Made by a program: the position numbers and the translations under genes. A DNA stretch of 64,000 bases from Vulcanimicrobiota bacterium (GTDB taxonomy: Bacteria; Vulcanimicrobiota; SpSt-956; JAKJGF01). The DNA lies in contig JBEHWO010000003.1 in assembly GCA_040217695.1 (NCBI GenBank), positions 3,948-67,947 on the forward strand, given 5' to 3'. Positions 17,644-53,295 of the stretch are shown in pieces. Every line of letters begins with the position of its first letter. Position 1 is the first letter of the stretch. The notes under the pieces are model-generated. The model saw only the letters and a list, made by a program, of their open reading frames with translations, did no database searches and was not told the DNA's origin.

Positions 17644-17826
17644 TATAGTGTATTTCATAACCTGTTAAAATTTACTTATGCTCTCGTGACGCGTAACGCG
17701 TGACGGGAAGAAAATCTAAAGTCAGCAGGTGTTCGTAATGCATGCTTCTTCACGCATCACGCATCACGCATTACGCATTACGCATCACGATGTTATTATT
17801 TATTGAGAGTTATGAAACTGACTATA
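17644..17826. mobile_element. MITE-like element with TATAGTGTATTTCATAAC ends and two opposed heptamer arrays
   Basis: 15/18 terminal inverted repeat; internal CGTGACGCGTAACGCGTGACG and (TCACGCA/TTACGCA)x6. Confidence 0.7.
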
Positions 17827-17892
17827 ATTACGGTATATATATAATATTTGCTTAACCGTATATTTTACCTTCTATCAGATGAAATATTAATT

Positions 17893-17993
17893 GACTGTAA
17901 TAAAATAATTCTGGCAAATTATGTTTACTGTCCTCCCGTCACGCGTCACGCGTCACGCGTCACGATTCTAAATATGATATGGTTATTTTTTTA
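17893..17993 (+). repeat. GACTGTAA..CTGGCAAATTATG-[CGTCACG]x4-..AAATATGATATGGTTATTT element
   Basis: Same family as 40417-40525 and 45749-45858. Confidence 0.75.
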
Positions 17994-18159
17994 GCGTAAT
18001 GTTTACGCATCACTTATCATTCATAACCTGTCCCGATTATTTAAATACTATGTTTTTTCTGTTTTCCTTGTATGAACCGAAATTATTTGCTCCGAGAAAA
18101 ACACTGTGATATAATATATTATATCTCCGGTAGCCCTGAAGTGATTGGAAGGGAAAAAT

Positions 18160-21100
18160 ATGGTATTACCTGTACCTATAAATTTTATAAATCTCCCCTT
18201 TGAAGAAATAGAGAGAGGGCTTGTCGATGCTCTCGGCCATATTGCCCTCATGGCCGGTGCCGTGAAGGCTTCTGTTTTTTTGTTCTCAGAAGATTTACAG
18301 ACTGTAACAGGCAGTTATGAATGGTTTTACGGGGAAAATCACCCCTCTGTTTCTCCGAACAGTTCTACAGATTTCTTTTCCGGTTATTTGGAGAGATGGA
18401 AAAATTTTGAAACATTTTTTATATCATCACCCTCTGGCAGGAATAAATGGCCGGGAACGGATTCTATTGTTTTCGTCCCTCTGGTTTTCAGAGGAAAACT
18501 TTACGGTGCTATGGGCCTTTATAAAAAGGCTCATACGGAATGGCCTGATGACGCAGTTGAGCTACTGGAATTTATGGCACCTCTTGTAATTAATGTAATA
18601 GAGAGAAAGAAAACAGAAGAACATCTCAGAAAAGCCCGGGAAAAATACAAAAATCTTTATCATTATGCCCATGTAGGACTATTTGAGACTTCTCTGGAAG
18701 AAGCAAAAATAATAGCCTGTAACAGGCTGTACTGTCAGATGGCAGGTTTTACTTCCGTAGAGGAAGCTATAAATCAGGATGTGCTTCAGTTTTATACAAA
18801 TCCCGCCCATAGAGAAGAAATAAAGAAAATATTAATGGAAAAGGGATTTATAGAAAATTATGTAACTCAATTCAGAAACAGGATGACAGACAAAAAGTTC
18901 TGGGCAGAATTTTCCGCCATGGTTAACCGTGACAGAAATGTTATAGAAGGAACCATTATTGATATAACAGCAAGAAAAGAAGCAGAAGATACTCTGGTAT
19001 TTACACAGTTCGCCATGGATAATGCAAGGGATGCCGTATATCTGGTTGACTCGGAAAGTAAATTTGTATATGTAAATCATGCTGCCTGTAAATATCTCGG
19101 TTATTCAAGAGAAGAATTGCTGACTATGGGTATCAGTGATATAAGACCGGAATATACGGAACAGTGGTGGAAGTCTCACATGCAGGAAATAAAAGAAAAA
19201 AAATCTTTTATGTATGAAAGTATTAATAGAAGAAAAGATGGAACAGTTTTTCCTGTAGAAGTATCTGTAAATTATCTGGAATTTTGCGGCAGAGAATATA
19301 ACTGCGCTTTTCTTCGTAATATTTCGGAAAGAAAAACAAGAGAAGGAGAAAGAAACAGACTTGTTTATATTCTTGAAGCTACCAGTGATCTTGTTTCAAC
19401 TGCAACTCCTGACGGTAAAATAATTTATATGAACAGGGCAGGGCGGGAACTTTTAAACTGGACAGAGGATAAAAATTCTGACTTTGTAAAATATGCTCAT
19501 CCTGACTGGGCTCTTGATATGGTTATGAATACCGGAGTCCATTCTGCAAGAAAAAATGGTGTCTGGCACGGGGAAACTGCTGTTTTAAACGGCGAAGGCA
19601 GGGAAATACCTGTGTCACAGGTTATTATAGCCCATAAAGCATCTGACGGCAGGGTGGAATATTTTTCTACTATTTTGAGAGATATCAGCAGAATAAAAAA
19701 GGGGGAAGAGAGTCTTGCCGCCGAAAAAGAACGTCTTTCTGTGACCCTTAAAAGTATAGGTGATGGTGTTATTGCCACTGATATTTCAGGAAGAATTACC
19801 ATTATGAACGGTGTTGCAGAAAAACTTACAGGGTGGACTCTGGAAGAAGGAGAAGGAAAAAAACTTTCCGATGTTTTTCATATTGTCAATGAGATGACAG
19901 GAGAAGTATGTGATAATCCTGTTCAAAAGGTACTCCTCAGCGGAGATATTGTGGAACTGGCAAATCATACTATGCTCATATCCAGGGATGGAAGAAAAAT
20001 GCTTATTGCCGATAGCGGTGCGCCGATAAAAGATAAAAACAATCAGGTTACAGGTGTTGTTCTTGTTTTTCGTGATATAACGGAAAGACAGAGAATAATG
20101 GAGAATCTTCAGAAGATTCAGAAGCTTGATTCTCTCGGACTTCTTGCAGGAGGTATAGCTCATGATTTTAATAATCTTCTCGGAGGCATTTTCGGTTATA
20201 TCGAACTTGCCAGGGAGGCATGTAAAGATAATGAAGCATCTTTATTTCTTTCCTGTGCGTTTAAATTATATGACAGAGCAAAATCTCTTACCAGGCAGCT
20301 TCTTACCTTTGCAAAAGGCGGTTCTCCTCTTAAGAAAACAGATGATCTTACATCAATTATAATGGATACTGTTAATTTTGCCCTTGCCGGTTCCAGTCTT
20401 AAATGTGTTTTTAATATAGATGAACATCTCTGGTTATGTGATTTTGATAGCAGTCAGATAAGGCAGGCTATTCATAATATAGTAATCAATGCAGTTCAGG
20501 CCATGCCGGACGGAGGAGACATATGTGTCAGTGCTGAAAATATTCAGTCTCTTCCTGCCATTCATATGTCTCACGGTAAAGGGAAATATGTGAAAATTTC
20601 CGTAATGGATAAAGGCACAGGCGTTCCCAGAGAATTACTCGGGAATATTTTTGATCCATTTTTTACTACAAAACAAAAATGCACAGGTATTGGCCTTTCT
20701 ATTGTATATTCCATAATCAGTAAACATGACGGATTTATTGACCTTGAGTCAGAAGAGGGGAAAGGCACTGTTGTTAATATTTATTTGCCTGTATCGAAAG
20801 ATGGTATTAAAGAGGTCATTTCTGCCAGGACTGTGGCGGGACATGTAACATGCACCGGTAAAGGTACTGTTCTTGTTATGGATGATGATGAAGATCTCAG
20901 GAAAATCCTGGAGAGAATATTAAAAAAAATAGGTTATTCAACTGTACTGACGGCAAATTCCAGGGAAGCCTTTTCTGCCTTTATTGAAGCAGAAAAAAGT
21001 GCCCCTTTCTCTACTGCTTTTCTTGATATGACCATACCCGGTGATATGGGCGGGAAAGAAGTGATAAAAAATTTTCTTATTGTAAGACCGGAACTTAAAG

Positions 21101-21284: not shown

Positions 21285-21452
21285 CAGTGTCTGCAGCGGT
21301 AAATACGATACCGGATAATCTGTGATTCTGTCTTTTCCTGTCACCCGTCACGATTATAGCCATTTATGAATTATTTTATATGAGAATCGTAACGCGTAAC
21401 GCGTCACGATATAGACGTAAATATGATTGGGTTATTTCTTGACAACCCCTAA
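21285..21452 (+). repeat. Two adjacent heptamer-core composite repeats
   Basis: GCGGTAAATACGATACCGGATAATCTGTG arm + GTCACCCGTCACG core; then TATATGAGAAT-CGTAACGCGTAACGCGTCACG-...GACAACCCC. Confidence 0.7.
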
Positions 21453-21497: not shown

Positions 21498-22718
21498 TTA
21501 TTGCCTGTCGGCACTGCTGTAAGTCTCTATGAGAGAATCTTTCATTTTTATGAATAGATTGCACTCGGAATTAAGTCTGTTCCGTACCTCATCAGGGCTG
21601 ATTTCTCTGTCCTCTATTAAAGAAGAAATACGTAAGAAAAACATCGGTACCATAGATTTCATTACCTCTTCACCATGGATAGATACATAAGAAGCATATT
21701 CAAAAATAACCTCTGTCCATAAATCTGCCGAGAATGAAGACTCTTTCCCCTGAGAAGCCTCTTCAACCCTGTTAAACGTATCTTTCGAGAGAATTTTTTT
21801 TATGGAGCTTCTGTATTCGTGAAATAATTTTTCCCCTTCTGCCTTAATTTCAACTCTGTTCAGAGATACAGGTGACGGAGAAATTTTATAATGATATCCG
21901 AAATCAGTAAGATATTTCTCTTCTTCACTGTTAGCCCAGACTTCTCTGTATATCTTCATTAAATGAAATAGTGTCTCCGAGGTTTTTATAAATTTATGTC
22001 TCATATCCTGGATTGTATCAAATTTATCTATATATTTATTACCGAGAAAGACCTGGCCTGTTTCAAAACCTTCTCCTGCAGCAGCAGTTGCCACCCATGT
22101 ATCTATATCCATATTCCAAAGGTCTTTTTCCAGAAAACTCCTTACCAGATCTACAGACATGGCATAATCTCCTGCACCGGGGAAACGAATATCTGTACAG
22201 AAAAGAGATCTTATAAGAGGATAAACAAGATTATTGTTTATTACTCCGTCATTATGATGAATTACATAGACAGGGGAGATATAATCATATTCTCCTTTGA
22301 TTACAGGAGTGAGAAGGCCTTCTATCCATTCAGGATTAATGCTCCGGAGATCTCCTCTTAATATCATGCATGCAGAAGCATTTAACATGTCTGAAGCATA
22401 AAATAGCCCTTTCAGAAAATTACCTCTTTCCATATTCTGATCCATAATGAGTCTGTGAACAGGTATGAATGATGTATAAATAAAATTCAATTCCCTGTCT
22501 TCATATAAGTCAAGATTGCTGAATACTCCGTCATCTTTCCCTCCCGCTTTGATTATCAGAGCTTTCTGGTCAGGAAAATATTTAGCCAGACCGAAACTTA
22601 CTGCTTTAAGTACTCTGGCAACAGACGTATCTTCATGAAGATCCGTTATGCCGACTATAATATCAGCCTCTCTTATAATTTCCAGTTTAATCATAATATC
22701 TCTGGATAGAATATTCAT
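21498..22718 (-). CDS. GT-A glycosyltransferase-like protein (glucosylglycerate/mannosylglycerate synthase-like), catalytic motifs degenerate
   Basis: ADIIVGI, GLAKYFP, DLRSINPEWI, YDYISPVY, DGVINNNLVYPL; DxD replaced by RGD; AGGAGG RBS before MNILS. Confidence 0.7.
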   Translation of the reverse strand: MNILSRDIMIKLEIIREADIIVGITDLHEDTSVARVLKAVSFGLAKYFPDQKALIIKAGGKDDGVFSNLDLYEDRELNFIYTSFIPVHRLIMDQNMERGNFLKGLFYASDMLNASACMILRGDLRSINPEWIEGLLTPVIKGEYDYISPVYVIHHNDGVINNNLVYPLIRSLFCTDIRFPGAGDYAMSVDLVRSFLEKDLWNMDIDTWVATAAAGEGFETGQVFLGNKYIDKFDTIQDMRHKFIKTSETLFHLMKIYREVWANSEEEKYLTDFGYHYKISPSPVSLNRVEIKAEGEKLFHEYRSSIKKILSKDTFNRVEEASQGKESSFSADLWTEVIFEYASYVSIHGEEVMKSMVPMFFLRISSLIEDREISPDEVRNRLNSECNLFIKMKDSLIETYSSADRQ

Positions 22719-22776
22719 AATCAGCCTCCTTTGAATAAATCGTAATCGACACACATGCATTATGTGATGTGAATCT

Positions 22777-22869
22777 CAGTGCTGCCAGCGGTAAATACAA
22801 CACCGGATAATCTGTGAGCCTGTCTCCTCTCGTCACGACTATAACCAGTGGAATAATTACCGTTATAAG
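22777..22869 (+). repeat. AGTGCTGCC...GATAATCT-[CGTCACG]-ACTATAACCAGTGG...CGTTATAAG element
   Basis: Arms match reverse complement of parts of 35997-36222. Confidence 0.75.
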
Positions 22870-23230: not shown

Positions 23231-23251
23231 AACAGTTCCAATCTTTCTTTA

Positions 23252-23345
23252 ATAGTGTATTTCATAACTTAGGAATAGAATTTTATTAATTGTCTCTTTC
23301 CTCGCGTAACGCGTCACGATTTAATATATTTGAGACAGTTATTTA
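23252..23345 (+). repeat. ATAGTGTATTTCATAAC-arm heptamer-core repeat
   Basis: Left end as at 17644; body TTATTAATTGTCTCTTTCCTCGCGTAACGCGTCACGATTTAATATATTTGAGACA matches reverse complement of 53181-53295. Confidence 0.72.
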
Positions 23346-23356
23346 ATTATCGTTCC

Positions 23357-23442
23357 TTACTGAGGTGAGTATAAAATATATGCTCTCGTGATACGTTACG
23401 GGAGGGGAAACTTTTATTACATGCTTATGCTCAGGTCAGTAA
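23357..23442 (+). mobile_element. MITE-like element TTACTGAGGTGAGTATAA...TTATGCTCAGGTCAGTAA with heptamer core
   Basis: Imperfect terminal inverted repeats; copies at 35126, 39306 (reverse), 43081, half copy at 30340. Confidence 0.72.
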
Positions 23443-23659: not shown

Positions 23660-25261
23660 ATGAGGTTTTCAAACAGGTATATTTCCAGTAAAAAAAATAA
23701 TATCGATGCTTCAATAATAGCACAACTGGCATTCGGTGAATTACAGAGTAAAGTCCCTGAAGTAACCGGTAAGCCGGTACTATGTCATTCCTGCGGTGCA
23801 GCAGTTACAGAACCATCTATTATTAAAGATACTCCCCCTGTAGGACTTCATTTTATATGTCAGTTCTGCAATAACATGAATAAAATAAATGAATTACAGT
23901 TTAACTCTATCAAAGCAATAGAAAAAGGTGTCATAGAATATCTTGATGAGATACAGAAAGATATGGCGGTAAAAGATAAAATAGTTGCATGTATAGACAT
24001 ATCGGGTTCCATGAATGGCGACAGTCTGGAATGTGTCAAAAAAAGTCTTATTGAAACACTGAAAGATATTTCCGTAAATGCCCCTGACAGCACTTTTGCC
24101 CTTATAACATTTACCGACTGGGTAAGCCTTTATAATGCTGATGGTCAGGAATGTATAAAAATCGCTGAAAGAGAGCTTTATGATGAAAATATGATTTGTC
24201 AGACCTTTCAAAACCTTCACTTTAACTTTGAACCGGTAAAAGAGAGTTACGAAAAATGGATAACTCTTGTTTCCGGTCTCAATGCAATATCCAGAACTGC
24301 CCTGGGACCGGCGGTGTTTTCCGCTTTCTGTCTTCTTCATGGAGGGGGCCGTATGATTTTACTTACAGATGGCCTTGCAAATGTGGGAATAGGTTCTCTT
24401 ATAAGCTATTCTCCCGGAGGAAGAAAAGGAGAATTTTACAGAGACTTCGCTTATAGATGCAGAGATGCCGGTGTAATGGTCGAAATTGTAGGTGTGGCAA
24501 CATCAGAACATTCCTCGATTGAACTGGGAACTATAGGTGATATGGCCCGTCTTACAGGAGGAGATATATATCTTGTAGACAGAAAGGAACTTTCAAAAAC
24601 TTTTAATACTCTTTCTCAGGCAGATTTTATAGGAAAAAATGTAAATGTAAGGATATTTGTTCCACCCAGTATGGCTCTCAGAGATGCAAGCGGTGATGTT
24701 CAGTTTCATAGAGAAGAAAAAGCTCTTAAAGCAAAAATCGGTTACGTAAACCCTGACAGGAAAATGTGTGTTGAACTGAATGTAACAGAAGATTTGAAAG
24801 AAAACGAGGATTTAACTGTTCAGACACAGGTAGAATATACAGGTATAGACGGAAAAAAGAGAATAAGAATATATAATGAGAAACTTCATGTGACAGAAAA
24901 AGAAAAAGATCTTGTAGAGAATTTCGAAAGTGACGTTTCGGATGAATTTTATATACAAAAAGCTGCCGAACTTGGCAGAACAGGCGAGGACGCAAAAGGT
25001 ATAAAGACTCTCCTGGAGTATACGGAAAAATTAAATGAATATCGTAATATGTCAACGAACCAGAAAAAAGCTCAATTGACCAGGAGTGAAGAACTCATAA
25101 ACAGGGAACTGGAAGATATAAATAAACTGAGACAGGAAAAAAGTAAAGATGCCAGATACAGTAAATATCAGGCAAGAGTTTCCTTTGGATCCACATCGGA
25201 ATTAAGGCAGGAATCCAGAAAAATGAGGCAGACGAAAATAGCTCTGGAACTGGAACCTTAA
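23660..25261 (+). CDS. Sec23/Sec24-like (cpRas1-like) Zn-finger + vWA domain protein
   Basis: TGKPVLCHSC...FICQFCNNMN Zn finger, IEY, CIDISGSM MIDAS, TALGPAV, LLTDGLANVGIGSL, FY, ARLTGG; AGGAG RBS. Confidence 0.8.
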   Translation: MRFSNRYISSKKNNIDASIIAQLAFGELQSKVPEVTGKPVLCHSCGAAVTEPSIIKDTPPVGLHFICQFCNNMNKINELQFNSIKAIEKGVIEYLDEIQKDMAVKDKIVACIDISGSMNGDSLECVKKSLIETLKDISVNAPDSTFALITFTDWVSLYNADGQECIKIAERELYDENMICQTFQNLHFNFEPVKESYEKWITLVSGLNAISRTALGPAVFSAFCLLHGGGRMILLTDGLANVGIGSLISYSPGGRKGEFYRDFAYRCRDAGVMVEIVGVATSEHSSIELGTIGDMARLTGGDIYLVDRKELSKTFNTLSQADFIGKNVNVRIFVPPSMALRDASGDVQFHREEKALKAKIGYVNPDRKMCVELNVTEDLKENEDLTVQTQVEYTGIDGKKRIRIYNEKLHVTEKEKDLVENFESDVSDEFYIQKAAELGRTGEDAKGIKTLLEYTEKLNEYRNMSTNQKKAQLTRSEELINRELEDINKLRQEKSKDARYSKYQARVSFGSTSELRQESRKMRQTKIALELEP

Positions 25262-25267: not shown

Positions 25268-25732
25268 TCATAGCAGGGGCCGAATATTATTCTGTCCCTG
25301 CAGACTTATAACAGATGTATCCGGTTCAGGCAATTTTGATTTTTCTTCAAGTTCCGCTCCATATTCTTTTAAAAATTTAAGGAGTAAGAATTCCAGTCTT
25401 TCTCTGGCACTCTCTGGTGCTCTGCAGACCAGTAATCTGCATTCCATAGGTCGCTCTTGGTAAATTTTACATAATTTCTTTTCTTTATCAAACATAATGC
25501 AGTAGCCGTCTTTACCTTTCGGCAGATAATAAGCTTTATCATCTATTATTTTCACCAGCGGAGGATTTTGACAGCAAAACCCGCATTGTTTGCATGGATA
25601 AAAATATGACCATGAACTGGCAAAATTTATCATTTTATGAGTCCATGGAAGTTGAGGTATTTCTTCCCATTTAACAGGTTTCCAGGGAAGAACAGGTTTG
25701 GGAGGTAATTTTATCTGTTTATCGTGTTTCAT
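25268..25732 (-). CDS. YkgJ family cysteine-cluster (CxxCxxCC) protein
   Basis: CKQCGFCC...C...CKIYQERPMECR; overlaps kinase stop (ATGA). Confidence 0.85.
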   Translation of the reverse strand: MKHDKQIKLPPKPVLPWKPVKWEEIPQLPWTHKMINFASSWSYFYPCKQCGFCCQNPPLVKIIDDKAYYLPKGKDGYCIMFDKEKKLCKIYQERPMECRLLVCRAPESARERLEFLLLKFLKEYGAELEEKSKLPEPDTSVISLQGQNNIRPLL

Positions 25733-27699
25733 AAGATTGATCTTAACCTGTCCAGAGATTTTTTTGCAGCCAGAGCGACAGTAGTTACAGGATCTCTTGT
25801 TGCTTTTTCAAGATGAGGTATGGCTCTGTGATCTTTAAAACTCCCCAGTACCTCGACTGCAGCTTTTCTGACACCTGTGCCGTTATCTTTTAAAGCCATT
25901 ATCAGGTCCGGTATGACTATGTCATTGCCTATCTCTCCCATAGATAGAACAGCCTGTTTTCTAACCCCTTCATCCAGATCTTCTTTTAATACACCTATCA
26001 GTTCATGAATAACTTTCATATCTCCGAGTTTCCCGAGAGATTCTATTGCGCTCACCCTTACAGGCGGCTGTTCGTCTTTAAGCTTTCTGATAAGAGGGGT
26101 AACGGCTTTTTTATTCCTCTGGTTGCCGAGAGCCAGAGCAGCTTCGCGTCTTACATTCCAGTCCCAGTCATTAAGTGCCTCTATAAGAGGTTCTACGAGC
26201 CTTCCGTCCTGCAGATTCATCTGAACTATCTGATTTGAAGCCTCAGTTCTTTCACAGTCATCATTACTCTGTAACATATAAATAAGTTTTTCTATTTCAT
26301 CCTTTGGTTCTTTCATAACTCTTGAAGTGGCTTTTTCTTTCACCTGTGGTGTCTGACTGTAAATTGCCTGCTGTTCTGATTCCGGTGTAACCTGATTAAA
26401 TATAGTTCTCTGCCCGAGGCTGGCCTGGGCAAAAGCTGACGAAATCTGTGCAGGATTCATGGGCCGTTCAATATTCTGACCTGTTACCTGATTATAAGCA
26501 GGAGGGCGGCCATAGGTGGCCTGGCCGTAAGGAGGGTAGCCATATGGATAGGCAGGGTATTGGCCGGGAACCTGTCCGTAGATCCCCTGAACCTGGCCGT
26601 ATGGGTTTGGAACCTGTCCGTATGGCCCCTGAACCTGGCCGTATGGATTTGGAACCTGACCGTATGGCCCCTGACCGTATGGCCCCTGAACCTGTCTGTA
26701 TGGCCCCTGAACCTGTCCGTAGGCAGGCTGACCGGCATTTTGAACGGGCCTGGCAGCTACACCGGAAGGCTTTACGGGAGCAGCAGTCACTTTTTCCTGC
26801 TGTACTGGAGTTATGACAGGTTCAGGAGATTTTTCCAGAGTTACAGTTTCGGTTTTTTCTCCTGTCATAGGTTGAAGCAATAATTTATATGCATCAAAAT
26901 AATTTTCTTTACAGAAGTTAAGTAATTGCTCTTTCATATCTTTAGCACTTGTATAACGGTTATCTATTTCATTTTCAAGGGCTTTCATAACTATTTTTTC
27001 CAGGTCGGAAGAAAGCCAGTCTCTGACCTGCCTTATAGGCTGGAAAGAAAAGGGAATCGGCACTATACCTGTAAGAAGGTGGTGCATTGTTGCTCCGAGA
27101 GCGTAAACATCACTTCTTGGTTCAGGATTGCCTTTGTATTGCTCCAGAGGAGCATAACCTTCTGTACCTACAGCTGTTTTCTGGGTATCTTTCACAGGAT
27201 TTATTACCCTTGCAATACCAAAATCTATCAGGAAAATCCTGCTTTCTTCCGATTTTAATATTACATTGGCAGGTTTCAGATCTCTGTAAAGAATAGGATG
27301 AGGTTTGTGATTATGCAGGTAAGATAAAACGTCACAGAGCTGTACTGCCCATATTACTACAAATTTTTCAGGTACCTGAAGATTACATTTTCGAAGAAAA
27401 CTTTCAAGATCTTCTCCTTTTATATAATCCATTACAAGATAATAATTACCTTTATCCGTAAAATAATCTGTTATACTCGGTATATTGGGGTGATCAAGTC
27501 TTGCCAGTATTTCAGCTTCTTCTCTGAATCTCTTTATGGCATATAGTTGCTGTTCCGATGCTTCACCCTGGTTAAACATTACTTTTATGGCACGAAGCTT
27601 TTTCTCGGGTATGTCTTCTGCAAGATAAACCATACCCATACCTCCGGCTTTTATAGTTTTTATTATTCTGTAACGTTCTTTTAAAACAGCATTTTCCAT
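25729..27699 (-). CDS. Hanks-type Ser/Thr kinase with P/Q/G/Y repeat linker and C-terminal HEAT repeats
   Basis: GGMGMVY, AIK, YRDLKPAN, DFG, GTEGYAP; VR..AA.ALG HEAT repeats. Confidence 0.93.
   Translation of the reverse strand: MENAVLKERYRIIKTIKAGGMGMVYLAEDIPEKKLRAIKVMFNQGEASEQQLYAIKRFREEAEILARLDHPNIPSITDYFTDKGNYYLVMDYIKGEDLESFLRKCNLQVPEKFVVIWAVQLCDVLSYLHNHKPHPILYRDLKPANVILKSEESRIFLIDFGIARVINPVKDTQKTAVGTEGYAPLEQYKGNPEPRSDVYALGATMHHLLTGIVPIPFSFQPIRQVRDWLSSDLEKIVMKALENEIDNRYTSAKDMKEQLLNFCKENYFDAYKLLLQPMTGEKTETVTLEKSPEPVITPVQQEKVTAAPVKPSGVAARPVQNAGQPAYGQVQGPYRQVQGPYGQGPYGQVPNPYGQVQGPYGQVPNPYGQVQGIYGQVPGQYPAYPYGYPPYGQATYGRPPAYNQVTGQNIERPMNPAQISSAFAQASLGQRTIFNQVTPESEQQAIYSQTPQVKEKATSRVMKEPKDEIEKLIYMLQSNDDCERTEASNQIVQMNLQDGRLVEPLIEALNDWDWNVRREAALALGNQRNKKAVTPLIRKLKDEQPPVRVSAIESLGKLGDMKVIHELIGVLKEDLDEGVRKQAVLSMGEIGNDIVIPDLIMALKDNGTGVRKAAVEVLGSFKDHRAIPHLEKATRDPVTTVALAAKKSLDRLRSIL
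26560..26721 (-). repeat. 21-bp coding tandem repeat, about 8 units of YGQVQGP/YGQVPNP
   Basis: Read directly in DNA and translation. Confidence 0.9.
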
Positions 27700-27905: not shown

Positions 27906-28484
27906 ATGAATATGAATTATGCAGTGGATTTAAAACAGGATATGGTATATAAAAAAAGAAGAGACTGTGAGCAGGAGGAAGCAAAAGAAAGGATGGAGTT
28001 TGCGCTGTCTGCGATCAGTTTCAATCAGGGACTTATAGAGTTTGCCGAAACAAAAGCGAATACATTACTTGTAATAAACAGTATTTTTCTTGCCACTCTG
28101 ACTGCTATGATGGACATACATATAACAGAAAATCTCTTCAGCGTAATCTTCAGTACAGTAAGAATACTGTTCCTGGTAACGACTGCATGTTCTGTTATAA
28201 CCTGCCTTATAGTGGTAATGCCTAAAAGTGATAATAATGCCATGGAGGGAAAAAAAGATTTAATATTTTTTATGGATATTTTAAGCCACAGTAACCGGGA
28301 GAATTATATATTTGAGTTCCACAGAACAAAGACAATCACTCTTATAGACGATCTGCTCAGAAGAGGTTATATGACAGCATCTATAGCAAAAGAAAAATTC
28401 AGCCGTTTTAAAGTGGCCCAGATTATGACATTTATCTCAACTTTTTTCTGGCTTTCAGGTACATGCATGTATTATTTTAAGTGA
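27906..28484 (+). CDS. Pycsar effector-like membrane protein (DUF5706/PycTM-like)
   Basis: FAETKANTLLVIN, TM helices, P...LIFF..I, IAKEKF before last TM helix. Confidence 0.7.
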   Translation: MNMNYAVDLKQDMVYKKRRDCEQEEAKERMEFALSAISFNQGLIEFAETKANTLLVINSIFLATLTAMMDIHITENLFSVIFSTVRILFLVTTACSVITCLIVVMPKSDNNAMEGKKDLIFFMDILSHSNRENYIFEFHRTKTITLIDDLLRRGYMTASIAKEKFSRFKVAQIMTFISTFFWLSGTCMYYFK

Positions 28485-37951: not shown

Positions 37952-37958
37952 ATAATAA

Positions 37959-38050: not shown

Positions 38051-38071
38051 TAAAGAAATGGAGAGTTTCCC

Positions 38072-39112
38072 ATGGCAAAAAAAATAAAAAAGAAGGACAG
38101 TACAAAAGAGAAAGAAAGAGAAGAGAATAAGGAGAGAGACAAGAAAACAGAGGAGAGCAAGAAGGAAAAGAAAACAGAGGAGATCAGGAAGGAAAAAAAA
38201 ACAGACGAGGATAAGAAAGAAAAGAAAATAGACGAGGATAAGAAAGAAAAGAAAATATACGAGGATAAGAAAGAAAAAGGAAAGAAAAAAGAGGAAGAGA
38301 AGAAAGAGAGTGGGAAAGATAAGACTGGCCGGGAAGAAAAAAAGAAAGAGAAAAAAGAAAAAATAAAAGGGGGAAAAGTAAAAAAAGACGAAGATGAATT
38401 TGAATTTGATGATATAGGTGTGGAAGATGAATTTGAATTTGATGATACAGGTATTGAAGATGGCGAAGGTGAAGAAGATGAATATTTAGATGACGAAGAC
38501 GAAAATATATATGATGAAGATATGGAAGTAGAAGAAGAGGAAGAAGAGGAAGAAGAGGAAGAAGAGGAAGAAGAGGAAGAAGAGGAAGAAGAGGAAGAAG
38601 AGGAAGAAGAGGAAGAAGAGGAATATGAAGGCGACGACGAATATGAAGGCGACGACGAATATGAAGGCGACGACGAATATGAAGACGACGATGAATATGA
38701 AGACGACGACGAATATGAAGATGACGACGAATATGAAGATGACTACGATGAACTAACTTCTGCACAAAAAGCTTTTGTACCGGGAAGATTTTCCATGTCG
38801 GATGATGATATAGAAAAAATTGTAGCTAAAATTGGCTCTGTAAAACAGGATGGGAAACAGGGGCTGAAAACCAGAGAGAGTATAAATGAAATGGCCTATT
38901 CTCATAGCCTTGAATTAATAAAAGTACTCATACCGGCAGCAAATCTGGATAAGAAAAAGCCTTTCCCTGATTATCTTATATGGCTTTATGAAAATCTGGC
39001 AGCCAGACTGGCTGAAGTATTTGAAAAAGCAAAGCCGGAAAAACGTGATCCTCCTGAAGTTGTTAAAGGTTTTGAAGCTCTGGTAAGTGATTTTAAAGGT
39101 AAAAAAGAATAG
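38072..39112 (+). CDS. Highly charged low-complexity protein (K/E-rich N-terminus, poly-Glu/Asp middle, folded C-terminus)
   Basis: GGAG RBS; open 346-aa frame through purine-rich repeats. Confidence 0.75.
   Translation: MAKKIKKKDSTKEKEREENKERDKKTEESKKEKKTEEIRKEKKTDEDKKEKKIDEDKKEKKIYEDKKEKGKKKEEEKKESGKDKTGREEKKKEKKEKIKGGKVKKDEDEFEFDDIGVEDEFEFDDTGIEDGEGEEDEYLDDEDENIYDEDMEVEEEEEEEEEEEEEEEEEEEEEEEEEEEEEEEYEGDDEYEGDDEYEGDDEYEDDDEYEDDDEYEDDDEYEDDYDELTSAQKAFVPGRFSMSDDDIEKIVAKIGSVKQDGKQGLKTRESINEMAYSHSLELIKVLIPAANLDKKKPFPDYLIWLYENLAARLAEVFEKAKPEKRDPPEVVKGFEALVSDFKGKKE
38531..38746 (+). repeat. (GAAGAAGAG)x10 followed by about 7 copies of an 18-bp unit (EYEGDD/EYEDDD)
   Basis: Read directly; encodes 31 consecutive Glu. 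Confidence 0.92.
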
Positions 39113-39252
39113 TGAGCCATGATTGTGTTTAAAAATAACAGGTGATTTTACATATACCATGGAAGAGGAAATTTATTATAGAAGATTTTTTGAAGAGAGT
39201 GTCATAGATTTTATTTAAATTTCTCTTTACATTCTCTTTTTGAAATTATCAG

Positions 39253-39305
39253 AGTGAACAGTGAATGGTGAATAGAATATGATATTACTTACCATTCACT
39301 GTTCA
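39253..39305. repeat. GTGAACA/GTGAATG heptamer hairpin
   Basis: agtgaacagtgaatggtgaata...accattcactgttca. Confidence 0.7.
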
Positions 39306-39410
39306 TTATTGACCTGAGCATAAGCATGTAATAAAGGTCTTGCTCCCGTCACACGTTACGCGTTACGCTTCACGAGAGCAGTTATGTATTATTTATACTC
39401 ATCTCAGTAA
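39306..39410 (-). mobile_element. MITE-like element (23357 family), reverse orientation
   Basis: TTATTGACCTGAGCATAAGCATGTAATAAA...core...TTTATACTCATCTCAGTAA. Confidence 0.72.
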
Positions 39411-39698
39411 TTAGAGACTTATATGAAATTAATTGTAATTTCCAGCATAAATGGAGCTATGTGTCGCAAAAAAACACAATCAAATATATTGAAATTATAT
39501 AGTTTTCTGATATAATAATTTTATAATAATTTTTGTTAAAATTATAAGCCAGGTTGATAGGATTATAAAAATAAAATCGACTGCAACTTATGTGGTTTTA
39601 CACATAGTCGCAATGTCGGATAAGAACCGTGAGGTTAACGTTGTATTTTATGCGGATTTTAATGGTCTGTGTAAATATAAATCAACTTATATGCAATT

Positions 39699-40103
39699 AT
39701 GAGGTTTCTCATTGTAGATGACGAGATTACGAGCAGAAAAATTTTACAGAAAAGTCTTAAACCCTATGGTTCCTGTGACTTTGCTGTCAATGGTGCTGAA
39801 GCAATTACCTTTTTTAAGAAAGCTCTTGAAGAGGAATGTCCCTATGACTTGATCTGTATGGATATTATGATGCCCAATATAGATGGACAGCAGGCAGTAA
39901 AAGAAATCAGGAAGTTAGAAAAAGAGAAAGGTATAAAACCGAAAAAAGAAGTGAAAATCATTATGGTAACAGCCCTGGGAGACCCGAAGAATGCTGTAGA
40001 AGCTTTTTATCATGGCAAAGCCACTTCTTATCTGGTAAAACCTATAAGTGTAGAAAAACTTCTTGGAGAAGTAAAAAAATTCGGATTAATACCTGAAGCA
40101 TAA
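39699..40103 (+). CDS. Single-domain CheY-like response regulator
   Basis: LIVDDE, MDIMMP, VTA, YLVKP. Confidence 0.9.
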   Translation: MRFLIVDDEITSRKILQKSLKPYGSCDFAVNGAEAITFFKKALEEECPYDLICMDIMMPNIDGQQAVKEIRKLEKEKGIKPKKEVKIIMVTALGDPKNAVEAFYHGKATSYLVKPISVEKLLGEVKKFGLIPEA

Positions 40104-40196
40104 TTTGGTTAACAGGTATTTTATAGTGTTTATGTGCGGGGATGTTTTGAAGAAAACGTCTCTTGATTATGTACACAGTAATTTTTCAGATGCTGA

Positions 40197-40376
40197 CAGT
40201 GCTGAATACGACACCTGATAATCTGTGAACCTGTCTCCTCCCGTCACGCGTCACGATTGTAAATATGATATGGTTATTTTTTACAAACACCGAGTAATGC
40301 CAACGATAAATACGACACCTGATAATCTTTGATTTTGTCTCCTCCCGTCACGCGTTACGCGTTACGCTTCACGATA
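40197..40376 (+). repeat. Tandem dimer of heptamer-core composite repeat
   Basis: Inverted counterpart of 35997-36222 including the GAGTAATGCCA junction. Confidence 0.8.
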
Positions 40377-40416
40377 TATAAGATTCTGGTTACTAATTTA
40401 TCTGTTACGGTACTAA

Positions 40417-40525
40417 GGGACTGTAAGAAAATAACTCTGGCAAATTATGGTTTTTTTCCTCCCGTCACGCGTTACGCGTTACGCGTCACGATTGTAAATA
40501 TGATAAGGTTATTTTTTACAACCCC
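40417..40525 (+). mobile_element. MITE-like element GGGACTGTAAGAAAATAAC...GTTATTTTTTACAACCCC with heptamer core
   Basis: Imperfect terminal inverted repeats; core CGTCACGCGTTACGCGTTACGCGTCACG. Confidence 0.75.
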
Positions 40526-40534
40526 TAAGTGTGA

Positions 40535-42112
<1,578 letters not shown>

Positions 42113-42116
<4 letters not shown>

Positions 42117-43000
42117 TCTAATTTCCTGTAGATTGTCGGTGCCACCTGAACCAGCGGTATGCTGAGCCCATGAAGTGTTTCAGAATGGCCCATAAAGAGA
42201 TATCCTCCGAAGGTAAGTTGTTTGTAAAATTTATTTAACAGTCTTTCCTGAGTTGCTCTGTCAAAATAAATTATTACATTACGACAGAATATTATTTCCA
42301 TAGGTTCCTGTATGCCAAAATTACTGTCCATAAGATTGAGTCTTCGAAAGTTAATGAGAGTTCTTAATTCAGGAACAATTCTTACAAATTTTTTATTTTT
42401 ATCTTTATTTTTCATCATATATTTATGTTTTAATAGAACAGGTATTCCTTCTATTTTTTCCATATCATAAATACCTTTTGCAGCCTTTTGAAGCACTTCC
42501 GTAGATATGTCGGTTGCAAGAATCGTAAAATTAAATCCGCTGTATTTTTCTCCGAATTCACTCAAAACGATTGCCATGGTATAAGGTTCTTCTCCCGTAG
42601 AACATCCTGCGCTCCAGACCCTGATTCTTCTGTGTATACCATGTACTGAAGAATTAAGTAATTCAGGCACTGCAGTCTGGGTTAAATAATCAAAATGGGC
42701 AGGTTCACGGAAAAAATCTGTTTTATTGGTAGTAATAACGTCGATCATATGAATAAGTTCAGTCTCGATTCCATGAGGGCTGAATATGTAGTCACAGTAT
42801 TCACTGAATGAAGCTATAGAAAGTACTTTCAGTCTTTTCCTTATACGGGCTTCAAGCATGATCTTTTTGTTTGGCGGAAGTTTGATACCTACTTCATTGT
42901 AGATAAAATCACTCAGAATTCTGTAATTCCTCGTAGACATAGATGTTGAATATAAATCGCCTGATTGTCTTTTTGTATCTTTATCCATAAATATATTCAC
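42113..43000 (-). CDS. cheR: Chemotaxis methyltransferase CheR
   Basis: TTNKTDFFRE, WSAGCSTGEEPY, IFCRNVIIYFD, GHSE. Confidence 0.97.
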
Positions 43001-43080
43001 CTGCTAAAGAATGATATTATTATTCTACCTTATCTGATAATATTCTTCAATATCTATATGGAATTTAGTACGAGTGAAAG

Positions 43081-43168
43081 TTACCGGGGTGAGCATAAAT
43101 AATACATATAAGCTCTCGTAACGCATGACGGGAGGAATGATTTTATGACTTGTTTCTCAGGTCAGTAA
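43081..43168 (+). mobile_element. MITE-like element (23357 family), decayed
   Basis: TTACCGGGGTGAGCATAAATAATACATAT...CTCAGGTCAGTAA. Confidence 0.68.
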
Positions 43169-43350
43169 ATAAAAATTTTCATGAAGGATAAATTTGTCCG
43201 ATGATGAAATAATAATAAGGTCAGTATTTTTTTGTAATTTATTCTTCCCATGCTTTATGAGGGGATGAGTATTTACGGATTTATTATGAATTTTTTTAAA
43301 GGAGGGGAATAGTCAGGGATTTTTTTTAGAAAATTTCCTGATACCTGTTT

Positions 43351-44274
43351 ATGAAAGTAATTATATGTGATCCTATCGACAAAGAATCTTTAGGTAAATT
43401 ACAGGCCCATAAGGGATTGGAAGTAGATGAGAAGACCGGCCTTGCACCTGATGAACTGTTGAAAATCACAGGTGATTATCATGCTATGGTTGTAAGAAGT
43501 GCTACAAAGGTTACTGCAGATGTAATTAAAGCAGCGAAAAATCTCAAACTGGTAGTAAGAGGCGGTGTGGGTGTTGATAATATAGATGTAAAATGTGCGG
43601 AAGCAGCAGGCATCAAAGTGGCAAATACCCCCAATGCCAGTTCCATATCAGTAGCGGAAATGGCAATAGCCATGATGTTTGGACTGGCGAAAAAATTGAC
43701 CTATCTTGATTCTTCAATGAAAAATGGCAAATGGGTTAAAAAGGGTTATAAAGCAATGGAACTCTGCGGGAAAACTGTCGGTATTATCGGTATGGGAAGA
43801 ATAGGTCAGGAAGTGGCAAGAAGGGCTCTCGGTCTCGGCATGCATGTACATTTTCAGGATGTCAGATCTATTCTTACTTTTGATCCTACAGGTATGGGGA
43901 CAGAACAGCATCCAATGAAGGTTATACTTGAAGAATCAGATTTTATAACACTTCATACTCCTTTTATAAAAGAACATGGTCCAATACTCAAAGCAGAACA
44001 TTTTGAGAAAATGAAAGACGGAGTTTTTATTATAAATTGTGCCAGAGGCGGAGTCGTTGATGAAAAAGCCCTCCTGGATGCACTGAAATCAGGAAAAGTA
44101 GCAGGAGCAGGTATTGATGTGTTCGAAACAGAACCTGCCTTCAGGGAAGAATTTAAAGAACTTGAAAATGTAATTCTCACCCCCCATGTAGCTGCTTCCA
44201 CAAAAGAAGGTCAGGCAAGAGTCGGCAGTGAAGTTGCAAAGATAATTATAGATTTTTATGAAGCAACCAAATAA
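43351..44274 (+). CDS. serA: D-3-phosphoglycerate dehydrogenase (short form)
   Basis: VRSATKV, GVGVDNID, GMGRIG, NCARGG, DVFETEP, LTPHVAAST; DUF1015 synteny. Confidence 0.88.
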   Translation: MKVIICDPIDKESLGKLQAHKGLEVDEKTGLAPDELLKITGDYHAMVVRSATKVTADVIKAAKNLKLVVRGGVGVDNIDVKCAEAAGIKVANTPNASSISVAEMAIAMMFGLAKKLTYLDSSMKNGKWVKKGYKAMELCGKTVGIIGMGRIGQEVARRALGLGMHVHFQDVRSILTFDPTGMGTEQHPMKVILEESDFITLHTPFIKEHGPILKAEHFEKMKDGVFIINCARGGVVDEKALLDALKSGKVAGAGIDVFETEPAFREEFKELENVILTPHVAASTKEGQARVGSEVAKIIIDFYEATK

Positions 44275-44323
44275 GTGAGTAGTGAATAGTGAGTAGTGAG
44301 TAGAAGTAATCACTACTCACTTT
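44272..44323. repeat. GTGAGTA/GTGAATA heptamer hairpin directly after serA stop
   Basis: taagtgagtagtgaatagtgagtagtgagtag...tcactactcactt. Confidence 0.8.
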
Positions 44324-44355
44324 CATTATAAATAGTTGCTTTCGAGCATTATACC

Positions 44356-44379
44356 CGCGTCACGCGTCACGCGTCACGA
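44356..44379 (+). repeat. (GCGTCAC)x3 array before RBS
   Basis: cgcgtcacgcgtcacgcgtcacga then AAGGAGG. Confidence 0.8.
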
Positions 44380-44397
44380 TTTAAAGGAGGCTTATAT

Positions 44398-45657
44398 ATG
44401 TCCGTAGTAAAACCTTTCAGAGGTGTCAGACCTGCAAAAGGTCTGGAAGAAAAAGTGGCAGCAGTGCCATATGATGTAGTAAATTTTGAAGAAGCCAGGG
44501 AAATAGCTTCACCCAATCCCTGCAGTTTCCTTCATATAGAGAAATCCGAGATAGACCTTGATCCGGGACTTCATATGCATGACAGGAAGATCTTTGAAAA
44601 GGCAAAAGAAAATCTCAAGAAGTTTATTGCAGAAGGCACTATGATAAGAGATGAAAAGAAATGTTATTATATATACCGTCAGATTATGCCCGTAGGCGAT
44701 AAACTTCATTCTCAGACAGGTCTTCTGGCAGGAGCATCTGTGAAAGAATATGAAGAAGATCTCATAAAAAAGCATGAACATACCAGGAAAGATAAAGAAG
44801 AAGAAAGAACCCTTCATGTAGATACGGCAAATGCAAATACAGGCCCTGTTTTTCTTGCCTATAAACAGAGGAAATCCATAGATGATATAGTTGAGAATAT
44901 AACCGGCCAGAATCCTGATTATGATTTTACCGCTACAGACGGTATAAGACATACTCTCTGGGTCGTATCAGATGAGGTAACAATCAATAACATTGCAGAA
45001 GAATTTAAGAAGATAGATTGCCTCTACGTGGCAGACGGGCATCACCGTTCCGCTGCCGCTACAAGGGTGGCCCGGAGAAGAAAGGGAGAAAACCCGCACC
45101 ATACAGGGGAAGAGGAATATAATTTCTTCCTTTCCGTTATATTCCCTGCAAATCAGCTTTATATAATGGACTATAACCGTGCCGTGAAAAACCTTGCAGG
45201 TAATACGCCTGACGGGTTTATGGAGAAAATTGCCGAAAAATTTGATATAGAAAAAATTGGAAAAGACCCTTATAAACCGGAGTCATTACATACATTCGGC
45301 ATGTATCTGGAAGGTTCATGGTTTAAACTTTCTGCAAAGAAAGGCACCTATCCGGAAGAAGATCCTGTTGCCTCTCTGGATGTTGCCATATTGCAGGAAA
45401 ATCTCCTGGAACCGATTTTAGGCATTAAAAACCCCAGAGAAGATAAGAATATAGATTTCATAGGTGGCATGAGGGGACTTAAAGAACTGGTGAAACTTGT
45501 AGACAGCGGTAAGTTTAAAGTAGCTTTCGCCATGTACCCCACTTCTATGGAACAGCTTATGAATGTAGCTGATCAGGGTAAAGTTATGCCACCTAAATCT
45601 ACATGGTTCGAACCGAAACTCAGAAGTGGCATGGTTGTCCATCTGTTAGAAGATTAA
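44398..45657 (+). CDS. DUF1015 family protein
   Basis: PYDV, KKHEHT, YVADGHHR, MPPKSTWFEPK. Confidence 0.93.
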   Translation: MSVVKPFRGVRPAKGLEEKVAAVPYDVVNFEEAREIASPNPCSFLHIEKSEIDLDPGLHMHDRKIFEKAKENLKKFIAEGTMIRDEKKCYYIYRQIMPVGDKLHSQTGLLAGASVKEYEEDLIKKHEHTRKDKEEERTLHVDTANANTGPVFLAYKQRKSIDDIVENITGQNPDYDFTATDGIRHTLWVVSDEVTINNIAEEFKKIDCLYVADGHHRSAAATRVARRRKGENPHHTGEEEYNFFLSVIFPANQLYIMDYNRAVKNLAGNTPDGFMEKIAEKFDIEKIGKDPYKPESLHTFGMYLEGSWFKLSAKKGTYPEEDPVASLDVAILQENLLEPILGIKNPREDKNIDFIGGMRGLKELVKLVDSGKFKVAFAMYPTSMEQLMNVADQGKVMPPKSTWFEPKLRSGMVVHLLED

Positions 45658-45721
45658 TAGTGAAAAGTGAAAAGTGAAAAAATTAGATTTTACTTACTTT
45701 TCACTTTTCACCACTCACTAT
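45658..45721. repeat. (GTGAAAA)x3 / TTTTCAC heptamer hairpin after DUF1015 stop, possible terminator
   Basis: tagtgaaaagtgaaaagtgaaaa...cttttcacttttcaccactcacta. Confidence 0.78.
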
Positions 45722-45748
45722 TTACTAATTAATAGATTTACAAAATTA

Positions 45749-45858
45749 AGGACTGTAAGAAAAATAACTCTGGCAAATTATTAGAACGATTAGTATCCTC
45801 GCGTCACGCGTTGCGCGTCACGATATAAACTGTAAATATCATGTAGTTATTTCCTGAA
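45749..45858 (+). repeat. GGACTGTAAGAAAAATAAC family element with heptamer core
   Basis: Matches 40417-40525 arms. Confidence 0.72.
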
Positions 45859-45862
45859 AATT

Positions 45863-46009
45863 CTTGACAATGTCACATTTAATAAAATAGCAATTAGCAA
45901 ATAGCTGTTAGTTTTCAGTTAATAATTAAAGCTAATCGCTAACAGCTAATAGCTAAAAACTAAAAACTAATAATTATTTTATCAAAGCAGGTAATATGAC
46001 AATGTCAAG
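45863..46009. mobile_element. MITE-like element with CTTGACAATGTCA ends, copy 2
   Basis: 15/17 terminal inverted repeat; close copy of 14890-15029 with different heptamer count. Confidence 0.72.
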
Positions 46010-52317: not shown

Positions 52318-52424
52318 CACCTCTTAACCAGTAAGTTATTCTACATTATACTATATTTCTATACTGGAATCAAATCTTTTCAAGAAAAGGTGAAGAAAAT
52401 TTATCCATTAAGATTTATCAAATT

Positions 52425-52901
52425 TTATAAAACGTTGCCGGGAACCCCGGTACCCTTGCAGACGGGTTCATTGACTCTTCTGCCTTCCAGAAATTTTTTT
52501 CCGCCGTGATAGTCAGAAAGAGATTGCTTTTCTACAGGGCCGTCAATGGTAGACCTGTGTATGAAATCTCCGTTACCGCAGTAAATTCCTACATGGGTTA
52601 TAGTCCCGTCCGGCCACTCACCATAAGTATTCTTAAAGAAAACTAAATCCCCGGGCATAAGATCCGGGACTCTGTTGATTTTTATACCAATATCATCTCC
52701 TGCAAGGGAGTTTGCATAGCTTTCATCGGTAGGAAAATAATTATCGGAAGGTTTTTCTGTAACCCCCGGTTCTATACCGGAAAGAGAAAAAACCTTTCTT
52801 ACAAACCAGGCACACTGCTCATTTTGACCCGGATTAAATTCCCTTCCCACCCACTCGAGAGCAACAGACAGAATCTTTGAAGAAAGAGATTTTTCAGACA
52901 T
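52425..52901 (-). CDS. NlpC/P60 family hydrolase
   Basis: QCAWFV, PGDLVFF, ITHVGIY, FIH. Confidence 0.88.
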   Translation of the reverse strand: MSEKSLSSKILSVALEWVGREFNPGQNEQCAWFVRKVFSLSGIEPGVTEKPSDNYFPTDESYANSLAGDDIGIKINRVPDLMPGDLVFFKNTYGEWPDGTITHVGIYCGNGDFIHRSTIDGPVEKQSLSDYHGGKKFLEGRRVNEPVCKGTGVPGNVL

Positions 52902-53180
52902 AATTACTCCTTTAAAGGTTTATATGAGAATCGTGACGCGTTACGGGAGGAACAAATTCTCAGATTTCGTTGTGACCGACCCGGTCATGTTTGTTACAGG
53001 TTATTTATTATGTAAAATTACAGAGTGCCGGTCACCCTTTACCGCTTATTGCTCACCGATTATTATATGCTTTTTATAATAGTAATACAATAAGCAGGAT
53101 TTAATTTTTTCAAAGTTGAATATTTATATATTCAATCCATAAATATTCCTGCCGTGACGGGTCAGTTAGGAATGGCAGTT

Positions 53181-53295
53181 AAATAAATGTCTCAAATATA
53201 TTAATCGTGACGCGTAACGCGTAACGCGTGACGCGAGGAAAGAGACAATTAATAAATTTTCATTCCTTATTATTATGGAAATTTAAGTGACTATA
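53181..53295 (-). repeat. Heptamer-core repeat, reverse copy of 23252-23345
   Basis: TGTCTCAAATATATTAATCGTGACGCGTAACGCGTAACGCGTGACGCGAGGAAAGAGACAATTAATAA. Confidence 0.75.

Follow-up and report, generated by a model that had tools for sequence, protein, structure and literature searches.

Heptamer repeats in the leaders of cyanobacterial genes have been known for decades. A comparable system is the TAACTGA repeat, reported from marine Beggiatoaceae, cyanobacteria and some Bacteroidetes, which in giant sulfur bacteria stands in gene leaders with no known function or route of spreading, as far as the available portion of that report goes (MacGregor 2015, PMC4679880). Canonical Harbinger transposons, kin to the IS5 family, are described as generating 3-bp target duplications (PMC12730594). 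Here we describe a stretch of 64,000 nucleotides from a Vulcanimicrobiota bacterium (assembly GCA_040217695.1, contig JBEHWO010000003.1, positions 3,948 to 67,947; hereafter the window), in which short intergenic elements with different arms surround an array of the heptamer CGTRACG. In the window, at least seven families of miniature inverted-repeat transposable elements (MITEs) share the CGTRACG array as cargo, and we consider it reasonably probable that this array, which throughout the genus also stands as an oriented module in gene leaders, serves the host as a signal.

The unit of the core is the heptamer CGTRACG (CGTYACG when read from the opposite strand), which is palindromic except for its central base. 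Four units make an array of 28 nt, which equals three ACGCGT hexamers with one free base between neighbours, set in DNA of 35-42% G+C (2-kb bins of the window). A two-unit pattern with at most one mismatch matches the window 42 times, compared with 0.01 expected from shuffles, which bears out the original prediction that intergenic elements with differing arms share a CGTCACG/CGTTACG core. These matches represent about 22 loci, nearly all intergenic, and about 19 of them lie inside 17644-53295. Genome-wide (7.79 Mb in 903 contigs), 2,038 exact arrays of at least two units are present, of which 1,855 (91%) fall outside open reading frames (ORFs), with ORFs covering 81% of the DNA. Extension with one mismatch gives 2,031 arrays, comprising 1,187 with four units, 399 with three, 297 with two and 116 with five. 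The central bases are of one kind only in 1,587 of the exact arrays and mix R and Y in 451. Arrays also hold 5,470 of the 5,589 ACGCGT hexamers of the genome; outside them 119 are observed vs 66 expected, so the hexamer is not depleted and restriction avoidance is rejected. Rfam 15 yields no match at the gathering score across the whole window, and for 35000-46000 a threshold of E up to 1 adds just two miRNA hits of chance level; nothing relevant was found in the literature on strings of this heptamer.

Orienting every array and clustering its flanks reveals consensus arms with sharp edges, which define at least seven families of non-coding, multi-copy elements of about 90-125 bp. Specifically, copies with both arms clustered number 199 in family A, 62 in B, 49 in C (47 with flank enough for a consensus), 35 in D, 42 in E, 17 in F and 20 in G, which comprises two subtypes; further small families, such as H, exist. 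Decay from a single ancestor does not account for the elements, because only the arms of B and C are related (z 10.6 and 17.8) and every other pair of families stays below z 3.3. Within families, the two arms are inverted repeats of each other (left arm vs reverse-complemented right arm, z 3.5-6.0) in A, B, C, E, F, G and H. Copies out of register (31/62 in B, 23/47 in C and 13/41 in E) were dropped before flanking triplets were counted; in the in-register copies, the two triplets are identical in 31/31 for B, 17/24 for C, 21/28 for E and 4/8 for F, whereas shuffling gives means of 16, 8.4 and 10.9 and maxima of 27, 15 and 18 for B, C and E. The duplication reads TTA or TAA, less commonly TCA or TGA, and frequently stands in the context C-TNA-G.

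Additionally, when empty sites are rebuilt from 25 nt, the triplet and another 25 nt, 9 of 69 are found uninterrupted elsewhere in the genome. For example, a C element is inserted at TTA within a D left arm, of which 33 intact paralogues exist. Three sister species, with genes about 85% identical, carry different elements at the same intergenic spots, and element length peaks within a 40-nt range in each family. Taken together, the family-specific inverted-repeat ends, the 3-bp TWA duplications and the paralogous empty sites identify the elements as mobile, non-autonomous DNA elements, that is, MITEs, with TWA duplications in B, C and E. New elements insert beside or into others at C-TNA-G sites made by MITE ends, which results in the clusters at 35994-36220 and 40199-40525.

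For analysis of the core, elements were detected by profile hidden Markov models (HMMs) of the arms alone, which avoids selection on the core itself and yields 538 left-right pairs. The gaps between canonical arms cluster at 7, 14, 21, 28 and 35 nt, and the mode is 28 nt in all six families for which copies were paired in this way (113/234 in A, 63/99 in B, 41/62 in C, 29/54 in E, 12/32 in F and 12/24 in D). None of the canonical pairs among these 538 elements has a gap shorter than 7 nt, and chimeras also hold core-like sequence between their arms; thus no canonical copy is without a core. Elements with one to three units are common. Families A-E have an identical 28-nt core consensus, which equals window positions 53206-53233 and carries the central bases G, A, A and G, and the consensus of family F differs from it in one central base. 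Identity to consensus is 96.5-99.3% at the paired positions of the core, 78-95% in the arms and 74-85% at the central base. Folded as single-stranded DNA, complete elements form long hairpins capped by the core (z -2.7 in C, -4.05 in E, -1.7 in A and -2.0 in F).

The same array is also found outside the MITEs, in the leaders of genes. In 648 of 1,817 oriented arrays the flanks are unclustered on both sides, and the flanks of such solo arrays form an arm-to-arm duplex of -6.6 kcal/mol vs -6.5 kcal/mol for mismatched partners. Among arrays located at most 35 nt upstream of a start codon, 343 stand in the CGTYACG sense vs 45 in the opposite sense (p 7e-58), and 174 of the 343 are positioned 19-28 nt upstream of the start codon, which is ATG in 269 cases, GTG in 39 and TTG in 35. 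A Shine-Dalgarno-like tetramer starts 6-13 nt after the array in 143/331, and the flanks are TCCTCG-like before the array and ATT after it. Leader arrays mostly comprise four units (210/343), the commonest variant having G at all four centres (82/210). The window provides three examples, at 44358-44378, 52932-52945 and 17685-17705.

Comparison between species reveals changes of unit number and of unit type at a constant position. The leader of the DUF1015 gene contains 3, 2 and 3 units in three species, an array of the T[AC]ACTGN type in a fourth and none in the sister genus, and it has two units fewer in a related strain represented by contigs from RNA libraries. These are contigs of a 95-99% identical relative from four activated-sludge metatranscriptome runs; they are uninformative on transcript starts, strand and expression level, and stretches that they leave uncovered carry no weight. 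The leader of the NlpC/P60 gene contains CGTYACG units here, T[AC]ACTGN units in the other three species and none in the sister genus. At both genes (44398-45657 and 52425-52901), the leader position held here by CGTYACG is occupied by T[AC]ACTGN among the sister species (G001-G003). The genus, with its four genomes, contains 466, 117, 1,156 and 84 three-unit matches to T[AC]ACTGN (42, 3, 173 and 8 for reversed-pattern controls), the sister genus contains 11, and 8 other genomes of the phylum contain none. For CGTRACG the corresponding counts are 1,918, 390, 437 and 1,574 in the four genomes and 2 in the sister genus, with no match in 26 other genomes of the phylum. The expansion of arrays is specific to the genus, and the dominant heptamer type differs between its species. 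In the sister genus a few A-like elements occur, one with a CGTRACG core and one with CGTGAAG-like heptamers.

Because its paired positions are invariant and its central base is free, because it keeps a strict orientation in leaders, slips by whole units and is replaced by another heptamer type, the core probably functions as a structure-forming signal in a 7-nt register that is bound by a specific factor. We propose that each MITE family, with its own arm pair ending in terminal inverted repeats, would move by the cut-or-copy-and-paste action of a DDE transposase supplied in trans, whereas the central cargo, typically four near-palindromic heptamers, is the same in all families. The array itself is a genus-wide cis module that also occurs solo, in one orientation, a few bases upstream of the ribosome-binding site, where a sequence-specific factor would read it as a hairpin- or cruciform-forming signal. 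By carrying the array, MITEs may distribute it around the genome, and occasional exchange inside the 28-nt core may yield chimeras. Of the two options offered originally for the core, namely a recombination or capture point and a protein-binding signal spread by several transposon families, the second fits the presence of the core both in unrelated MITE families and as an oriented module in gene leaders.

As for the enzyme, the 3-bp TWA duplication points to a transposase of the IS5 / PIF-Harbinger type as the putative cognate DDE enzyme, which would act in trans; the duplication sizes of the bacterial IS5 subgroups enter here as general background. The earlier remark that the window lacks a transposase is borne out for the 49 ORFs compared with Pfam; no transposase family is matched by any of them. 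Elsewhere in the genome DDE_Tnp_1 has eight matches and DDE_Tnp_4 none, and at L023 (G000:C445), positions 1-1110, a two-ORF insertion sequence of the IS5 family with its own inverted ends reaches the contig end. A family A MITE adjoins this insertion sequence.

Several observations weigh against this account. All assemblies are short-read metagenome-assembled genomes (MAGs), and genes were called by a crude longest-ORF caller. Family D has no inverted repeat (z -0.3), and in family A the count of flanking triplets detects no target duplication. An autonomous element with the family ends was found neither in the 903-contig MAG nor at nine DDE loci of three sister MAGs, a kind of assembly that often loses such repeats; paired family ends more than 300 nt apart are rare, and those inspected hold no transposase. 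The IS5-family element at L023 has ends unlike those of the MITE families and contains no heptamer array. Among 21 loci around DDE or Y1 transposase genes in four genomes, none has an array in the transposase leader, and three hold one elsewhere. Moreover, MITE cores are mostly GAAG (186) and four-unit leader arrays mostly GGGG, which argues that the MITE cores are not simply recopied over and over from leaders. The base pairs of the arms exhibit no consistent strand-specific wobble bias (216 vs 187, p 0.16, with families disagreeing), compensatory changes are few (65 vs 575 other mismatches), and upstream CCUC pairs with the ribosome-binding site in 30/184 native vs 37/184 shuffled leaders.

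Accordingly, some narrower proposals were discarded. Strand-specific RNA selection on the arms is not supported by the unbiased wobble count, and pairing of CCUC with the ribosome-binding site is rejected as no better than shuffled. Capture of the core from a transposase leader is rejected by the 21 array-free transposase leaders and by the difference between GAAG in MITEs and GGGG as the commonest leader type. A reading of the elements as REP sequences mobilised by RAYT is likewise rejected, since the four Y1_Tnp loci hold one lone heptamer and no array, and since target duplications are present.

Another account takes the core chiefly as a point of recombination or capture, at which exchange would continually reshuffle the arms and generate new families. 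Chimeras between families indeed exist, amounting to 33 of the 538 elements (28 with B and C merged; 5-6% of elements, three of them in the window), and in 26 of the 33 the gap consists of whole heptamers, 7-42 nt long. The GAAG core is common to five of the six families, among which only B and C have related arms, and is unlike GGGG, the commonest variant of leaders, which fits transfer of the core between families; the 451 arrays that mix R and Y are as expected of quasi-palindromic exchange in either orientation, and head-to-head mosaics such as 21376-21452 occur. However, 505 of the 538 pairs (94%) are canonical, far above the mean of 149 (maximum 190) in 5,000 shuffles with random pairing, so the arms are not freely shuffled around the core as had been supposed, and each family keeps its own length peak and its own target duplications. 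In addition, two of the three window chimeras, the C-left/F-right elements 36112-36220 and 40199-40291, share one composite junction with the preceding F right arm, which indicates one event that was later copied. The first of them does not fold end to end (z -0.55; 45/200 shuffles fold as well) and, having no end-to-end inverted repeat, is unlikely to transpose. A leading role for recombination is therefore unlikely in our estimate, and the chimeras look like by-products of homology within the core. Being identical across unrelated elements, the core puts 28 nt of homology on offer, and to judge from the sequences exchange inside it may be the source of the chimeras.

Two RNA libraries (X2, X3) of the related strain provide contigs that cross position 40254 and rejoin the window at 40527, with one element where the window has three. 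The junction of F arm and core is thus not peculiar to this assembly, and the worry that chimeras are assembly artefacts is answered in part, since independent contigs of two runs cross the junction at 40254. The arm combinations named in the original prediction are real: the two F arms are paired at 22779-22869 and 35994-36108, an F right arm is paired with a C left arm at 36112-36220 and 40199-40291, the two C arms are paired at 17893-17997 and 40417-40525, and the joining in variant form at 21376 corresponds to the head-to-head mosaic. The TTACTGA..TCAGTAA family, our family A, is recovered at all four places (23357, 35126, 39306 and 43081). On the other hand, what had been taken as one TATAGTGTATTTCATAAC family is not single, because 17644 is D-type, 23252 is a 19-nt fragment of a D left arm that is interrupted at TTA by an E element, to which the core at that place belongs, and 53181 lies inside another E element.

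A more far-reaching form of the preferred reading makes the array itself the unit of selection, a portable cis signal of the TAACTGA class that would cross phyla, be read in a 7-nt register by a conserved nucleic-acid-binding factor, be passed in this genus between unrelated transposon families through exchange inside the core, and be installed by these families, as vectors, in front of genes as a transposon-distributed regulon; we hold this to be a speculative possibility, with the odds clearly against it. A four-unit scan of one genome per prokaryote species returns at least 106 stretches. Among the matches listed, many are in MAGs labelled Vulcanimicrobiota or uncultured Synergistia, others are in MAGs labelled Aminicenantes, Acidobacteria, Bacteroidales, Clostridia, Chloroflexia, Verrucomicrobia and Nitrospiraceae, or in two actinobacterial isolates. 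The flanks in the records labelled as other phyla, where the array is at low copy and MAG binning errors are possible, have 45-55% GC, are often purine-rich (CGGAAGAA-like) and lack the MITE arms. Phage as the vector is rejected, as the viral contig collection contains no match to the four-unit pattern. One arm family (U9-type, on G000 contigs and at about 915-935 of L154 (G004:C1)) ends in a 13-nt stretch directly before the array, which we take to be identical to the T7 promoter core. A search for a phage-type RNA polymerase gave no match in these genomes or in the control genomes, and is therefore uninformative; the T7-promoter-like 13-mer is probably a by-product of the TCAC register of the heptamers.

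The core could alternatively be needed in cis for transposition, as a site for the transposase or for a host bending factor or as a cruciform hinge that draws together the ends of an element of roughly 100 bp, with solo arrays as relics of decayed MITEs. Consistent with such a role, none of the 538 arm-detected elements is without a core, the gap always amounting to at least one unit, the core occupies the dyad of whole-element hairpins (z -2.7 in C and -4.05 in E, with 0/200 shuffles folding as well), and its paired positions vary less than the arms by a factor of about 2 to 30, according to family and arm. Solo arrays do not behave as relics, however, as their flanks are unique and non-complementary and as they keep one orientation and a fixed distance to the start codon. 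The array is also kept in orthologous leaders and is present in MAGs labelled as other phyla where these arms are missing, and elements with one to three units are common. We regard this explanation as quite improbable.

Finally, the module could be a portable promoter or initial-transcribed cassette, with a -10-like hexamer next to the array and the GC-rich repeats at the start of the transcript: on the strand opposite to the leader sense, TAnnnT runs right up to the array border in 15-22% of arrays vs 1-5% at other offsets in the solo classes, the DUF1015 leader of three species has a -10-like hexamer 5 nt before the array and that of the sister genus has TATAAT directly before the ribosome-binding site and no array, and BrickBuilt, a MITE of P. 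gingivalis, is reported to contain bidirectional promoter elements (PMC4596501). We consider it very improbable, because the strict hexamer is missing at either border of most arrays, a fixed -35 is not seen, and the RNA data, being contigs, are uninformative on transcript starts; a fixed -10/-35 promoter upstream of leader arrays was itself rejected, its enrichment being weak.

Table 1. MITEs, chimeras and leader arrays of the window, with their cores
Feature	Coordinates	Strand	Core and remarks
D-type composite	17644-17830	+	Left arm, 3-unit array 17685-17705 (43 nt upstream of minus-strand gene 16547-17641), decayed inverse array 17751-17789
Family C MITE, canonical arms (U2-D4)	17893-17997	-	4-unit core 17937-17964
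Partial element	21294-21365	-	F-type right arm and two degenerate units 21340-21353
Head-to-head mosaic (U14-D14)	21376-21452	+	H-type left arm, 3-unit core 21388-21408, inverted B-type left arm
Family F MITE	22779-22869	-	Single heptamer 22831-22837; leader of gene 21498-22760; site differs in three sister species
Family E MITE in D left-arm fragment	23272-23356	-	2-unit core 23305-23318; TTA duplicated at 23269-23271 and 23357-23359
Family A MITE	23357-23440	+	Degenerate 2-unit core 23387-23400
Family A MITE	35126-35229	+	4-unit core 35161-35188, a nearly perfect palindrome owing to mixed middle bases
Family F MITE, canonical arms (U7-D6)	35994-36108	+	4-unit core 36029-36056
Chimera, C left / F right (U2-D6)	36112-36220	+	3-unit core 36148-36168; abuts F element 35994-36108
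Family A MITE (U0-D0)	39306-39410	-	4-unit core 39347-39374
Chimera, C left / F right	40199-40291	-	2-unit core 40242-40255
Chimera, G left / F right (U6-D6)	40294-40413	-	4-unit core 40346-40373
Family C MITE	40417-40525	-	4-unit core 40463-40490; TAA duplicated at 40414-40416 and 40526-40528; fold z -2.7
Family A MITE	43081-43168	+	Degenerate 2-unit core 43117-43130
Solo leader array	44358-44378	+	CGTCACG x3 on gene strand; 19 nt upstream of ATG 44398 (DUF1015 gene)
Family B MITE	45750-45860	-	3-unit core 45802-45822
Leader array	52920-52960	-	2 units 52932-52945, with H-type short inverted repeat on its sides; 30 nt upstream of ATG 52901 (NlpC/P60 gene)
Family E MITE (U4-D5)	53169-53266	+	4-unit core 53206-53233 (the consensus); TTA duplicated at 53166-53168 and 53267-53269; fold z -4.05

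Some further features of the window were observed alongside these elements. The region 16491-18034, which contains gene 16547-17641 (CarboxypepD_reg domain) and the adjoining repeat cluster, is represented by about 200 nt in three sister species. Directly 3' of two stop codons, at 44275-44340 and 45657-45725, inverted heptamer pairs (AGTGAGT/AGTGAAA facing ACTCACT/TTTCACT) form terminator-like hairpins made of 7-nt units. A coding repeat with a 21-nt period spans 26563-26739, within the Ser/Thr kinase-HEAT gene 25729-27699. The ORF at 23660-25261 encodes two domains usually found in eukaryotes, the Sec23/Sec24 trunk (E 4e-11) and the Sec23/Sec24 beta-sandwich (E 5e-9), and the small ORF at 27906-28484 encodes a PycTM (Pycsar effector) domain (E 1.6e-7). 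The neighbouring paralogous genes 55778-57886 and 57962-60025, each of about 700 amino acids and 75-83% identical in DNA, match no Pfam family.

Among the known systems, the leader arrays most resemble the TAACTGA repeats, which are likewise direct 7-nt repeats of 2-6 units, almost all intergenic, oriented toward the start codon and patchy across phyla, and neither system has a known function or spreading mechanism, to the extent that the available text of PMC4679880 covers these points. Since the T[AC]ACTGN arrays of this genus are the repeat type of that paper, the link is direct and goes beyond analogy. Unlike TAACTGA, which is predicted there to be unstructured, the CGTRACG unit is self-complementary; the array here stands upstream of a retained ribosome-binding site, whereas TAACTGA mostly ends 1 nt before the start codon, without one; and the copy number here is about ten-fold higher. 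The term MITE does not occur in the available text of that paper. BrickBuilt of Porphyromonas gingivalis, as far as its description was available (Klein 2015, PMC4596501), shares with the present elements an intergenic location, small inverted-repeat ends and a spacer-free internal tandem repeat of variable unit number, but it consists of a single family of 19 copies built on a 23-nt unit, unlike the at least seven families with unrelated arms and one 7-nt unit described here, whose array also occurs outside MITEs. Similar to REP/REPIN-RAYT systems (PMC3116915, consulted in part), the elements are short, abundant, intergenic and hairpin-forming; distinct from these, they have target duplications and a tandem-repeat core, and none of four Y1-transposase genes is flanked by arrays.

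With MITEs mobilised by IS5-family or PIF-Harbinger transposases, the elements share terminal inverted repeats and a 3-bp TWA/TNA duplication, and an IS5-family element is present elsewhere in the genome; unlike in those systems, a matching autonomous partner was not found here. The BIMEs of E. coli are mosaics of a few modules, the Correia elements of Neisseria have a central host-factor site and outward promoters, and the STRR sequences of cyanobacteria are tandem heptamers. To our knowledge, none of these joins one tandem-heptamer core with many unrelated transposon arms.

Precedents therefore exist singly, for heptamers in leaders (TAACTGA), for a MITE with an internal tandem repeat (BrickBuilt) and for MITEs with TWA duplications; the combination of one heptamer core in many transposon families of unrelated arms with an oriented leader element was not found in print, supplements aside. 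Against that background, this genus is a far denser case of leader heptamers, with about 2,000 arrays per genome, and it adds a second unit type with a structural signature, the paired positions being invariant and the centre free. The two unit types interchange at the same leader position among sister species. Several unrelated MITE families carry the array and thereby represent the first visible vehicle for leader heptamers, and conservation of the internal cargo rather than of the ends is the reverse of the usual relations among MITE families. Identical 28-nt cores at thousands of sites should additionally shape genome rearrangements. Jointly, these features make the question of heptamer repeats testable by experiment and by strain comparison.

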